Source: Parvibaculaceae bacterium (GTDB lineage: Bacteria; Pseudomonadota; Alphaproteobacteria; RS24). From it: a stretch of DNA of 64,000 bases. This document shows, piece by piece, positions 56,443 to 59,621 of this stretch. A program made the position numbers and the translations under genes. The notes beneath the pieces were generated by a model. That model saw only the letters and a program-made list of their open reading frames with translations, had not been told where the DNA came from and ran no database searches. The first letter of the stretch is position 1. The number at the start of each line of letters is the position of its first letter. The DNA lies in NCBI GenBank assembly GCA_965243245.1, contig OZ251536.1, forward strand, positions 161,638 to 225,637, read 5' to 3'.

Positions 56443-56460
56443 TTATACTTTCGAGCTTTG

Positions 56461-56507
56461 TTTTAAGACACTGTTTTAAAACAGTGTTTTAAAACAGTGT
56501 CTTAAAA
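56461..56507. terminator. Inverted/direct repeat cluster (ttttaagacactgtttt / aaaacagtgtttt / aaaacagtgtcttaaaa), likely a bidirectional terminator
   Basis: 56461-56477 is the exact reverse complement of 56491-56507, and 56469-56488 is a perfect 20-bp palindrome. The cluster sits between convergent tRNA-Arg and the 56502-57794 gene and overlaps that gene's stop codon. Confidence 0.55.
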
Positions 56508-57794
56508 CGGATTTGTGTAATTGAGTAATAATGATTTGGTTTTTTTATCATTATTAAACTGCAAAATATTCGAGTTTGTCTTGATTTGTGAATATCCGGC
56601 AATCAGGCGGAAATTTTTTAAACCGCGATGGATAAGGCTACCCATAAGCTGATAATTCACATTATAGGCGGTAATATCATCGCGCCGAATACGTTGTGCG
56701 CCAGAATCTTCTGCCCTATGGTCGCTCTCGCCAACGCGGTACCCTAAGCTGATGGTTTGTCCACGGGTAATCATTCCCTGTAGTGAGATGGCGCCATATT
56801 TGCTTTCTTTAGAGTTGTATTGTGCTGAAAGCAGGGTTGCTTCCACGTCTTGCCAGCTGGCAAATATTGTGGTGCGCCAATGCTTTGTTAAAGCAAAGCT
56901 AACGCCGCCTCTAGCTGCAACGGTTTCACTGTCTGAATTATCGGCTGATTGATATAGTGTGCTTTTTTGATAGTCGCGCTTATTGGCTGAAAAACTCATG
57001 AAAATGAAGCTTTGAGCGAAGAATCTTTTATTAATATCTAAACCGACACTCTCATAGATTGTTTTGGGCTGTGTTTTGCTATCAATTTCGCCATAGGTTA
57101 GTTTTGGAATAATTTCTAACCCAAGCGGGTTAAGTTTGGCGCCGATTGTCAGATCATAACTGGTATATTCCATGAATTGAGTATCGCTATCAGATACTTT
57201 TGAAGCATTGAGGCTGGTGAAAAGCTTATCAGCATTTTGATTGAGGAGGTCATATTCGCTATAAAGTCCTATGCCTGAGGTGAGGGCTTTATCATCGACA
57301 GGCAGATCAAATTCACTGGTGCCATTGGAGCTGATAAAATTAGACGTGCCTTGGGGCAATTCTGCTTGCCCTGATTCTGGAAAGCTGTTCACATTCTCGC
57401 CGTCCAGATAACCAAAACTGAAACTCATAAGAAAATTCCAACGCGCACGGCGTCTAGTGAGCGTACTCAGCATTGCCGCTACCTCGCGCGCAATATTATC
57501 GGGCAAGGGCAACACATTCAAGGCGTGCAATTCGCCGCGTGCTTGTGGGTCACTCCCCATTGCCATAAGGATACGCGCACGCATAAGCCGCGCCGGCAGA
57601 TTAGTCGGCTGCTTTACAAGCACCCGTTCAATCGCCCCAAGAGCCGCCTTTGGCTTACCACGTTGAAGACGCTCGGTGGCATATTGGCGATTGAGCTGGA
57701 TGTTATCAGGGTCTTTAAGAATCTCTTGATAACTAATCTCGGACACAGAAATTGATGGCACGATAAGGGTGAGAGCAAAAACTGCGTTTTTCAT
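56502..57794 (-). CDS. Outer-membrane protein with an N-terminal TPR-like region and a C-terminal beta-barrel; Slam/DUF560-like (candidate type XI secretion component)
   Basis: Signal peptide MKNAVFALTLIVPSISVSE. Helical TPR-like segment (LQRGKPKAALGAIERVLVKQPTNLPARLMRARILMAMGS). Barrel-like alternating pattern from RWNFLMSFSFGYLDGENVN to the C-terminal ...SNILQFNNDKKTKSLLLNYTNPF. Start chosen at ATG 57794; three further in-frame ATGs lie upstream in the 21-bp repeat. Confidence 0.6.
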   Translation of the reverse strand: MKNAVFALTLIVPSISVSEISYQEILKDPDNIQLNRQYATERLQRGKPKAALGAIERVLVKQPTNLPARLMRARILMAMGSDPQARGELHALNVLPLPDNIAREVAAMLSTLTRRRARWNFLMSFSFGYLDGENVNSFPESGQAELPQGTSNFISSNGTSEFDLPVDDKALTSGIGLYSEYDLLNQNADKLFTSLNASKVSDSDTQFMEYTSYDLTIGAKLNPLGLEIIPKLTYGEIDSKTQPKTIYESVGLDINKRFFAQSFIFMSFSANKRDYQKSTLYQSADNSDSETVAARGGVSFALTKHWRTTIFASWQDVEATLLSAQYNSKESKYGAISLQGMITRGQTISLGYRVGESDHRAEDSGAQRIRRDDITAYNVNYQLMGSLIHRGLKNFRLIAGYSQIKTNSNILQFNNDKKTKSLLLNYTNPF

Positions 57795-57875
57795 TATTTT
57801 GTCTCCAGACCCCATTATTCTGTCTCCAGACCCCATTATTCTGTCTCCAGACCCCATTATTCTGTCTCCAGACCA
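57792..57875. repeat. 21-bp tandem repeat x4 at the junction of the FecR-domain gene and the Slam-like gene
   Basis: Units at 57792, 57813, 57834 and 57855 (cattatt[c/t]tgtctccagacc[c/a]). On the coding (minus) strand each unit reads GGTCTGGAGACAGAATAATG, giving GGAG, an 8-nt spacer, and an ATG overlapping a TAA. Confidence 0.95.
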
Positions 57876-59506
57876 AAGACAAGGCCTTCAATTTCTCTTT
57901 GCTCGATAAGCGGCCCCGCCCCCACCGGAATCTCACTCGGCCTGAGAGTCACGCTAACAGTATGGTCAGAAAAATTGGCGACATTTGAGCCCGCCCCGCC
58001 AAATTGCACATTAGCTAAACTCGACGTAGAGAAAACCTCAAGCGTTGCATTATCAGGGATAGTACCTTGTGTGAGAGTTACAAACTGGTCCACAGGAACA
58101 CTATTGCTGACGGCATTTGTCTGCGAGTCAAAAACAGCATCCCCGACCCGCCCAAATGCACTTTCTGGCTGGCCCAACTGCACGAGATTATCGGCGGGGA
58201 TAATTTGTCCAAATTCAAAAGCCGCGCCGCCCGTTGCCTCACGCCAGTCGAGTTGCTCTGCTTGCATATTCATAGAGGCTTCAATAAAGGTGGCCACGCC
58301 AACATCATTACCACTGCCGATAGGCTCTGATAGCCCGCGCCCATCCTCAATGCTGAAATTCCCCGTCAGCGAGCTGGTGACTGTCTGGTTGGTGAAATCC
58401 CACACATTGCGCACATTATATGACCCGCACTCACCCGTTTCACAATGACCATTAATGACGACATTATTAGCAAAGAAAGTAGCCGAACCTGTCAGACTGG
58501 CGGCGCGAATATCAGCCAGACTTGTTTGTCCTAAATATTCCGACCCTTGATTGAAAATATCAGCAACATCAGTTCCAAGATTCACGCCGTCAAAGAAATC
58601 TTGTAGCTCTTCGCCTTCCAGCTCTAAAAGGTCTTGGCCTAATAACGACAAAGCCGTCGCGGCTATAAGGGTCCGATCTTGGGTGGTTTCGCCATCAGCA
58701 ATGGCGGCCCCAAGGGTATCACTCAAAACTTCATTACTGGCAAAAGTATCAAGTTCGCCGTCATTATCTGTGTCTTCACCTGTTTGAAGCCGAAGCTCTT
58801 TGACATCAACATCAAGTTCCTTTGCAATTTCGGTAATGGCTTGTTCAGATAAGGACTGTTCAAGTTCTTGAATTTGCTCGTGTGAGGCTTGAACTGGCTT
58901 TGTTGGGCGGGTTTGTTCTGAGCGGGGGCGAATTTGAGTAACAAAGCCCGGGCGGGTAATCTCAATACTGCCAATATCATTCGTCACACTGATGCTACCG
59001 GGGGCAAGCCCAAGCGAATTATTGAGCCCCGGCCCAAGTAAAATAACAGTTGTTGAACCATCTTCTTCAACCTCTCCGGCGACGGATGTGCCGCGCACAC
59101 CGATGGTTGCGGCGGGGGTTTTAACTTTCATGGCATCTGGCGAGGCGATGGCGACTTGCCCTGAAACAAAGCGGAAGGCACCTTGTTTAACCGAAGCTGT
59201 CAAGGTGTTGGCAGAAGCAAGGCTTGGGTCATAGAGAAATTCATCAATTGTCATGGCGGCATTTGCCCCAAGTGTGAAAATCGTTTCATCGAGTAGCATG
59301 ACCTGTAATCGACTTTGCTCGCCGACTTTAATTTCATCACCAAGATAAACCGTATGACCTGATGACATCTGCCCAATAATGGCGGCTCTTTGGGGGGAAC
59401 TTGCTTTGATGACTTGCCCGCGAATACCAGCTGCAACGCCAATTTGTACGGCATGGGCAAATTCACTGCCGGCAAGTAAGAGGATAAAACTTAAAATAAA
59501 ACGCAT
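57857..59506 (-). CDS. Secreted FecR-domain protein with an acidic linker and a C-terminal TbpB/fHbp-like barrel-type region (549 aa)
   Basis: Signal peptide MRFILSFILLLAGSEFAHA. FecR-like region (GQMSSGHTVYLGDEIKVGEQSRLQVMLLDETIFTLGANAAMTIDEF...VKTPAATIGVRGTS). C-terminal GSATFFANN...YNVRNVWDFTNQTVTSSLTGNF...VQFGGAGSNVANF. I prefer the ATG at 59506 to the track start at 59557. Confidence 0.65.
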   Translation of the reverse strand: MRFILSFILLLAGSEFAHAVQIGVAAGIRGQVIKASSPQRAAIIGQMSSGHTVYLGDEIKVGEQSRLQVMLLDETIFTLGANAAMTIDEFLYDPSLASANTLTASVKQGAFRFVSGQVAIASPDAMKVKTPAATIGVRGTSVAGEVEEDGSTTVILLGPGLNNSLGLAPGSISVTNDIGSIEITRPGFVTQIRPRSEQTRPTKPVQASHEQIQELEQSLSEQAITEIAKELDVDVKELRLQTGEDTDNDGELDTFASNEVLSDTLGAAIADGETTQDRTLIAATALSLLGQDLLELEGEELQDFFDGVNLGTDVADIFNQGSEYLGQTSLADIRAASLTGSATFFANNVVINGHCETGECGSYNVRNVWDFTNQTVTSSLTGNFSIEDGRGLSEPIGSGNDVGVATFIEASMNMQAEQLDWREATGGAAFEFGQIIPADNLVQLGQPESAFGRVGDAVFDSQTNAVSNSVPVDQFVTLTQGTIPDNATLEVFSTSSLANVQFGGAGSNVANFSDHTVSVTLRPSEIPVGAGPLIEQREIEGLVFGLETE

Positions 59507-59621
59507 TACAAACTCCAACAAACTCGAGCAAACGCGAACAAACACCAAAAACGCCACTCAGTAATGCGCCGACTATATTTGTTTGTCAGAAATACTGAAA
59601 TGCTATTTTTGATATTCGGAT

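Follow-up and report, generated by a model that had tools for sequence, protein, structure and literature searches.

We identified, in a 64,000-nucleotide stretch of a Parvibaculaceae bacterium genome (contig OZ251536.1, positions 161,638 to 225,637; the whole stretch is referred to as the window), two adjacent genes on the minus strand that encode a secreted FecR-domain protein (gene 1) and an outer-membrane protein composed of a tetratricopeptide repeat (TPR) domain and a beta-barrel (gene 2). Gene 2 belongs to the Slam/DUF560 superfamily as a divergent member, beyond the reach of the Pfam model. The FecR and barrel pair is a functional unit, descended from or sister to a module of CHASE2 cyclase, FecR protein and Slam-like barrel. 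By its sequence, the window carries the marine branch of this module, which occurs in Parvibaculales, Rhodobiaceae and SAR116 and is not linked to CHASE2. The probability that the gene 2 barrel exports or displays its FecR partner in the manner of Slam proteins was put at about 0.5.

The features of the two genes are as follows, with positions counted from the first nucleotide of the window.

57857 to 59506, minus strand: gene 1, secreted FecR-domain protein, 549 amino acids and stop codon (open reading frame, PF04773, AlphaFold2 model)
59450 to 59506, minus strand: signal peptide of gene 1, residues 1-19, MRFILSFILLLAGSEFAHA, no lipobox (read by eye; AxA-type sites kept in the alignment)
58922 to 59449, minus strand: conserved N-terminal FecR-like beta domain of gene 1, residues ~20-195 (Pfam, model strands 21-192, Foldseek)
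58502 to 58921, minus strand: helical acidic middle region of gene 1, residues ~196-335, with a conserved D-x-D-x-D-G-x-L-D motif (AlphaFold2 helices 209-335)
57860 to 58501, minus strand: family-specific C-terminal beta domain of gene 1, residues ~336-549 (AlphaFold2 model)
57792 to 57874, minus strand: 21-nucleotide tandem repeat, 4.0 copies, which duplicates the gene 1 stop/gene 2 start junction (GGAGACAGAATAATG; Tandem Repeats Finder score 159, 98% matches)
56502 to 57794, minus strand: gene 2, outer-membrane protein of the Slam/DUF560 superfamily, 430 amino acids and stop codon (open reading frame, AlphaFold2 model, family link to PF04575)
57444 to 57740, minus strand: periplasmic TPR domain of gene 2, residues ~19-117, six helices (AlphaFold2 helices 22-116; TPR_19 and TPR_14 matches)
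56505 to 57443, minus strand: 14-stranded beta-barrel of gene 2, residues 118-430 (fourteen long AlphaFold2 strands, 119 to 429)

An earlier note, made from the sequence alone, had described the two genes as a Slam-like pair with an unusual cargo. Both of its open reading frames and all of the peptide strings that it quoted were present in the translations.

Structure and superfamily assignment of gene 2

Slam proteins are defined by an N-terminal TPR domain and a predicted 14-stranded DUF560 barrel (PMC5449769). The AlphaFold2 model of gene 2, which was built on the family alignment, predicted such an arrangement, as the earlier note had expected, with a mean predicted local distance difference test score (pLDDT) of 94.5 and a predicted template modelling score of 0.84. 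The barrel displayed a conserved long loop at residues 134-167 and a C-terminal Phe (...NYTNPF). The sequence matches to the TPR models were marginal, with TPR_19 reaching 24.8 bits against a Pfam cut-off of 25, while the nearly invariant columns of the family were found mostly in the TPR domain.

A word-based search with gene 2 detected seven close homologues, all in metagenome-assembled genomes (MAGs) of the Parvibaculales type. The profile built from these homologues retrieved 1082 representatives at E ≤1e-3 and 306 at E ≤1e-10, most of them full-length at 430-490 amino acids. Among 71 aligned full-length relatives, PF04575 was matched by 24 (E up to 0.01, best E 1.2e-10) and TPR_Slam by 18. 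When relatives were scanned one by one, four passed the PF04575 cut-off of 22 bits, namely P0163 (36.8), P0167 (24.5), P0152 (23.9) and the protein of locus L074 (24.4); of the 288 positions in the model, the matches covered up to 9-282. Full-length relatives that pass this cut-off had been retrieved with the profile of the gene 2 family at E 1e-27 to 1e-33. As it is the relatives and not gene 2 that pass PF04575, the link of gene 2 to DUF560 is transitive and holds at the superfamily level.

The best fold matches of gene 2 in the Protein Data Bank (PDB), as obtained with Foldseek and normalised to the target, were the 14-stranded OmpG (template modelling score, TM, 0.68-0.77) and CymA; no Slam structure was among the matches listed. 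Sequence searches of the PDB with both proteins and with the gene 2 family profile returned generic TPR and porin matches alone.

Synteny of the pair and linkage to CHASE2 cyclases

Scanning genomes with the gene 1 alignment yielded 79 loci, which, together with loci fetched earlier and after the removal of duplicate contigs, gave a set of 81. Open reading frames were called in the loci and searched with three profiles, for the N-terminal domain of gene 1, its C-terminal domain and the gene 2 family, as well as with a CHASE2 cyclase that adjoins one homologue; linkage was defined as a CHASE2 gene within 7 kb. An adjacent FecR and barrel pair was present in 58 of the 81 loci and a CHASE2 cyclase in 42.

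The loci fell into three classes. Class A (n = 25), which includes the type found in the window, comprised Parvibaculales, Rhodobiaceae and Puniceispirillaceae/SAR116, and its FecR proteins carried a strong match to the C-terminal domain. The barrel gene was located directly 3' of the FecR gene in 23 of these loci, including all 13 complete ones, and both exceptions were truncated contigs; the synteny in relatives that the earlier note had anticipated was therefore observed. The gaps between the two genes ranged from -162 to 354 nucleotides and were mostly -3 to +6. None of the 25 loci had a CHASE2 gene within 7 kb. The intermediate class (n = 5; gammaproteobacterium HIMB30, Litorivicinus, a Pseudomonadales MAG and Rhizobium sp. 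Q54) showed a weak C-terminal domain match, with a CHASE2 cyclase in 4/5. Class B (n = 51) included Rhodospirillales, other Alphaproteobacteria, Deltaproteobacteria, and MAGs labelled Elusimicrobiota, Omnitrophota, Planctomycetia and Spirochaetales. Here a CHASE2 cyclase was found in 38/51 loci and an adjacent barrel gene in 31/51, the usual order being the barrel gene followed by one to three FecR genes. The N-terminal FecR domain was common to all of the barrel partners, at 40-56% identity between classes, and the C-terminal regions diverged. One to three FecR paralogues accompany each barrel gene, which is reminiscent of multi-cargo Slams.

In the 64-kb window itself, a tblastn search with the CHASE2 cyclase identified no CHASE2 homologue. 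No extracytoplasmic function (ECF) sigma factor or TonB-dependent receptor was found in the window neighbourhood or near the pair in the syntenic relative L084. The earlier note had remarked on the absence of all three and had concluded that the pair matched no described FecR system. The former point held, and the latter overlooked the CHASE2 context, given that the module occurs with a CHASE2 cyclase in more than half of the loci.

Several class A loci displayed a second, divergent pair beside the first and divergently oriented to it (L001 1478-5904, L004 1319-5439, L010, L011, L015 and L032). It consists of a 900-1120-amino-acid protein, in which an N-terminal FecR domain is followed by a long uncharacterised C-terminal stretch, and of a paralogous TPR-barrel gene that it overlaps; one of these barrels was pre-annotated as PF04575 SlipAM. 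This second pair is absent from the 64-kb window. In gammaproteobacterium HIMB30 (L030, 9880-14267), a 767-amino-acid FecR protein forms a pair with a 694-amino-acid barrel protein that has a long N-terminal extension. Next to it lies a class-A-like pair, with a CHASE2 cyclase also present in this locus, which may represent an evolutionary intermediate between the CHASE2-linked and unlinked forms.

The DUF560 literature, like that on the type 11 secretion system (T11SS), treats the family as proteobacterial. Barrel and FecR homologues, usually with a CHASE2 cyclase, were also observed in the MAGs labelled Elusimicrobiota, Omnitrophota, Planctomycetia and Spirochaetales, where binning errors are possible (L041, L043, L046, L054, L055, L059, L060, L065, L069, L073, L074, L076, L079 and L082).

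Domain organisation of gene 1

The longest open reading frame of gene 1 extends over 57857-59557 on the minus strand, from a GTG start located 17 codons 5' of the ATG. The ATG at 59506 precedes a hydrophobic signal sequence, and the protein begins MRFILSF. There is no lipobox, because no Cys occurs within the first 30 residues, and the junction between AHA and VQ is, by eye, a plausible signal peptidase I site; the non-lipidated signal peptide of the earlier note was thus retained.

The FecR domain that the earlier note had read in the N-terminal region was confirmed by a PF04773 match to residues 57-155 (38.5 bits, cut-off 24). More than 212 homologues of gene 1 were detected, and all of the 39 that were aligned matched FecR in Pfam. 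The AlphaFold2 model (mean pLDDT 87.5) comprised a beta domain at residues 21-192, acidic helices at 209-335 and C-terminal strands at 341-544. A Foldseek search of the PDB retrieved the C-terminal cell-surface-signalling domain of PupR (6ovk; E 7e-5, root-mean-square deviation 2.7 Å, 154 columns) as the sole credible fold match. The FecR-like domain was also the most conserved block in the homologue alignment. Structural matches to this domain were further observed in BFVD for two proteins of uncultured Caudovirales phages named 'FecR protein', A0A6J5M6W5 and A0A6J5LYJ1 (E 3e-16 and 6e-14, 23-26% identity, Foldseek).

The middle region presented two conserved blocks, 'GEDTDGDGxLDS' and 'FFxGVNLG'. 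Its acidic motif, G-x-D-[TS]-D-[GN]-D-G-x-[LP]-D (58700-58760, residues ~245-256), is conserved and resembles, by eye, the DxDxDG loops that bind calcium.

The C-terminal domain was modelled with eight long strands, at residues 341-353, 361-370, 375-387, 407-420, 429-437, 487-502, 512-523 and 537-544, and an insertion separates the fifth from the sixth. The family alignment ends in the motif G-[VI]-F-[GA]-[ML]-x-[KR]-[QT], which we take to resemble the ...VFGAKRQ end of TbpB-type cargo. Together, the eight predicted strands and the terminal motif are suggestive of a TbpB-type barrel and do not confirm one. The earlier note had assigned this region to the TbpB/fHbp/hemophilin barrels; the eight long strands were predicted, and a TbpB-like fold match was not obtained. 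No Pfam match to TbpB_B_D (PF01298) or Lipoprot_C was detected in gene 1, 39 homologues, 10 CHASE2-linked paralogues or 4 long paralogues. The C-terminal domain profile had no match in the PDB, and a homologue search with it returned fragments of its own family alone. Comparison with the fHbp barrel by hhalign, for which the fHbp sequence was checked against the PDB at 226 bits, gave a probability below 1%, and only a 12-column 'tIDFaaK' motif was aligned, which was not significant. Foldseek searches of gene 1 against the PDB and BFVD matched the FecR part alone and listed no TbpB, fHbp or hemophilin structure; weak matches to the barrel of GFP were not meaningful. The hhalign comparison with the C-terminal regions of the CHASE2-linked (class B) paralogues gave a weak match, at a probability of 76% over 81 columns.

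Comparison with known systems

Gene 2 resembles the Slam/T11SS proteins, such as Neisseria meningitidis Slam1 and Xenorhabdus nematophila NilB/HrpB, in its N-terminal TPR domain, predicted 14-stranded barrel and C-terminal Phe. Likewise, gene 1 resembles their partners in that it is adjacent, co-oriented, Sec-exported and equipped with a beta-rich C-terminal domain. Unlike Slam partners, gene 1 has a FecR domain, lacks the TbpB-like barrel signature and is conserved in its N-terminal part, and unlike Slams, the gene 2 family is linked to CHASE2 cyclases and reaches beyond the Proteobacteria, as judged from the MAG labels. With the FecR/PupR regulators (PF04773; 6ovk), gene 1 shares a Pfam match above the cut-off and a fold. 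It differs from these single-pass anti-sigma factors in being soluble, in having a signal peptide and in an extra C-terminal region of ~350 amino acids, and the pair differs from their systems in having neither an ECF sigma factor nor a TonB-dependent transducer.

The adjacency of FecR and CHASE2 has already been described. COG4254 LysM-FecR proteins lie beside a CHASE2 histidine kinase in Burkholderia and in Pseudomonas aeruginosa (PA4035/PA4036; PMC5192318), and SMc02177 adjoins cyaD1 in Sinorhizobium meliloti (PMC5498481). These proteins and gene 1 have a homologous N-terminal FecR domain, whereas the accessory domain is a C-terminal beta domain in gene 1 and LysM in the described CHASE2-linked FecR proteins. 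The described systems were reported without a TPR-barrel protein, and the branch in the window has no CHASE2 gene nearby. The link of FecR and CHASE2 to a Slam-like barrel was not found described in the literature searched: no paper was found there that joins FecR with DUF560 or T11SS, in line with the earlier note's view that a FecR partner is unusual for the Slam superfamily; among the papers listed for DUF560, Slam or T11SS, none mentions CHASE2; and a survey of T11SS cargo holds no mention of FecR.

The FecR region of gene 1 also gave a weak NCBIfam match (19.9 against a cut-off of 420) to the FecR-domain lipoproteins LipL45/Lsa33 of Leptospira. These are named a surface adhesin in NCBIfam, which offers an annotation-level precedent for a FecR fold outside the periplasm, although they are lipoproteins, unlike gene 1. 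To our knowledge, LipL45/Lsa33 has no Slam-like partner.

Proposed mechanism and alternative explanations

Beyond the domain identities and the synteny, the following mechanistic steps are what we infer. The gene 1 product would leave the cytoplasm through Sec as a soluble, non-lipidated protein, and in the periplasm it would be captured by the TPR domain of gene 2, whose barrel would then carry it, wholly or in part, to the cell surface. This two-gene envelope module would derive from the widespread system of a CHASE2 cyclase, one or more FecR proteins and a barrel. The observations consistent with export are the Sec signal, eight predicted C-terminal strands and terminal motif of gene 1, the adjacency of the two genes with their conserved stop/start overlap, the occurrence of one to three FecR paralogues per barrel gene, the Slam architecture of gene 2 and the PF04575 matches of its relatives. 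As the FecR domain is constant in the partners and the nearly invariant columns of the barrel protein are concentrated in its TPR domain, the recognised element may be the FecR domain itself, bound by the TPR.

A number of results weigh against export by a Slam-like mechanism. Gene 2 itself has no PF04575 or TPR_Slam match in Pfam at E up to 1 and no DUF560 match in NCBIfam, so that of the earlier Slam/DUF560 assignment the TPR and 14-strand model and the remote homology stand and the direct family match does not. PF04575 also catches the 16-stranded PgaA exporters (bioRxiv 10.1101/2020.01.20.912956), and a weak match to it is therefore no proof of protein secretion. The C-terminal domain of gene 1 showed no detectable relation to the TbpB_B_D, fHbp or hemophilin barrels by Pfam, profile, hhalign or Foldseek comparison; its eight long strands are a prediction and would form a candidate barrel. 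The constant part of the partners is the N-terminal FecR domain while the C-terminus varies, the reverse of type 11 cargo with its constant C-terminal barrel, and this conservation of FecR rather than of the C-terminal domain argues against a simple form of the earlier suggestion, with the C-terminal barrel as the secretion signal. Furthermore, the FecR and CHASE2 domains are periplasmic, and the three-gene linkage in 42 loci thus fits a contact in the periplasm at least equally well.

Such a contact could operate without any translocation, and we regard this as the main alternative, possible though less probable. The TPR domain would anchor the FecR domain on the inner face of the outer membrane; an external cue would be sensed or admitted by the barrel, and the FecR protein would relay this cue to a CHASE2 receptor (cyclase or kinase) in the inner membrane, which in the present genome would be encoded elsewhere or have been lost. 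By analogy, this would be signalling of the FecA-FecR kind with a Slam-like barrel in place of the TonB-dependent transducer. The CHASE2 linkage in 38/51 class B and 4/5 intermediate loci, the conservation of the FecR domain in all partners and of the TPR as the most conserved part of the barrel protein, and the match of gene 1 to the periplasmic signalling domain of PupR are all in agreement with it. So is the known FecR-CHASE2 linkage without an outer-membrane protein in Burkholderia and Pseudomonas (PMC5192318), and so is the position of SMc02177 beside cyaD1 in S. meliloti (PMC5498481). In S. meliloti, signal perception by CHASE2 cyclases moreover requires NsrA, a barrel protein of the outer membrane (PMC7529298). 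However, NsrA was rejected as a homologue of gene 2, as it has ~1200 amino acids and no detectable homology; a tblastn search for such a relation in a plasmid collection expected to include pSymB gave one weak Shinella match. Periplasmic docking is further opposed by the lack of a CHASE2 gene within 7 kb in any class A locus and in the 64-kb window, and protein translocation is reported as the sole demonstrated function of DUF560 barrels (PMC9090332).

Two other explanations were rejected. It is very improbable that gene 2 exports polysaccharide as a channel of the BcsC/PgaA/PelB type, with gene 1 as an unrelated neighbour. BcsC and PelB were among the top Foldseek matches of gene 2 through their TPR and barrel layout, a weak BcsC TPR match was present in NCBIfam, and some PgaA proteins are caught by PF04575. 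Nevertheless, 14 strands were modelled and not 16, the target-normalised TM to BcsC was 0.31-0.36 against 0.68-0.77 for OmpG, the conserved neighbourhood has no synthase or glycosyltransferase gene, and the invariable partner is a FecR protein with overlapping stop and start. Still more remote is classical cell-surface signalling by a FecR anti-sigma factor and a TonB-dependent receptor: the Pfam FecR domain and the resemblance in fold to the anti-sigma regulator PupR would suit it, yet gene 1 has a cleavable signal peptide with neither a cytoplasmic anti-sigma domain nor a transmembrane helix, and neither an ECF sigma factor nor a TonB-dependent receptor accompanies the pair in the window neighbourhood or in its syntenic relative.

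The estimate for export or display of the FecR partner includes a threaded arrangement, in itself rather unlikely, in which the variable C-terminal domain would be exposed outside as the ligand-binding end while the FecR domain would stay in the periplasm and report to the CHASE2 receptor. If true, this would amount to cell-surface signalling of a new form and would give the CHASE2 domain a defined input pathway, and the marine CHASE2-unlinked branch would be either a rewired version or one for surface display independent of signalling.

CHASE2 is a widespread sensor domain without an established ligand or activation mechanism. The three-gene set, with a barrel in the outer membrane, a FecR protein in the periplasm and a CHASE2 cyclase in the inner membrane, is a concrete candidate for a trans-envelope pathway. 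For type 11 secretion, the Slam-like barrels are extended by a large and divergent group, the partner of which is invariably a protein of the FecR fold. This group occurs in marine oligotrophs of free-living habit and, together with CHASE2 cyclases, in MAGs assigned to several non-Proteobacteria phyla. T11SS cargo is experimentally defined for the host-associated cluster 1 alone, its prediction uses the C-terminal TbpB-like barrel, and the cargo of the marine cluster 3 is unclear (PMC12282271).

Gene junction, local repeats and neighbourhood

As the earlier note had seen, gene 1 ends in a stop codon that shares a base with an in-frame ATG of gene 2 (TAATG). The longest in-frame open reading frame of gene 2 spans 56502-57857, and the ATG at 57794 gives a protein beginning MKNAVFAL. 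The 21-nucleotide tandem repeat, whose unit is GGTCTGGAGACAGAATAATGG and whose first copy holds the TAATG overlap, runs across this stop/start junction. Every copy contains GGAGA, a 7-nucleotide spacer and ATG, so that the Shine-Dalgarno sequence, stop and start are duplicated together and four starts, each with its Shine-Dalgarno sequence, result in the gene 2 frame. Because the repeat duplicates the junction, the signal-peptide start MKN is located 63 nucleotides 3' of the gene 1 stop, and an N-terminal extension of MGSGDRI repeats before the gene 2 signal peptide is possible. In relatives of 61-66% identity the repeat is absent and a single junction is present, a TAATG or ATGA overlap that leads straight onto an MKK signal-peptide start. 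This indicates that the translational coupling is ancestral and the repeat specific to this genome, where it could modulate the coupling or be an assembly or strain-specific expansion.

The G+C content over genes 1 and 2 is 0.42-0.51, slightly higher than that of the flanks, and the locus shows no sign of a mobile island. The neighbours of the pair are genes for a C26 peptidase/GATase, a Cys/Met-metabolism enzyme, an NDUFS4-like protein, a P450 and an ABC transporter, and these housekeeping-gene surroundings are kept in L084, the relative of 61% identity, where the pair has housekeeping neighbours alone within 10 kb to either side. A promoter and terminator scan gave nothing above chance.

Two further repeats flank the pair. 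A 10-nucleotide periodic repeat of ~5 copies (59508-59556, plus-strand consensus ACAAACGCCA, 80% matches) is located directly 5' of the gene 1 ATG, within the longer GTG-started reading frame, and its spacing of one helical turn suggests a possible regulator binding array. At the other end, a largely self-complementary 13-nucleotide unit, TGTTTTAAAACAG, in 3.8 copies (56459-56508) spans the gene 2 stop codon and runs into the gap before the convergent NDUFS4-like gene, where it may form a bidirectional terminator or a protein-binding site.

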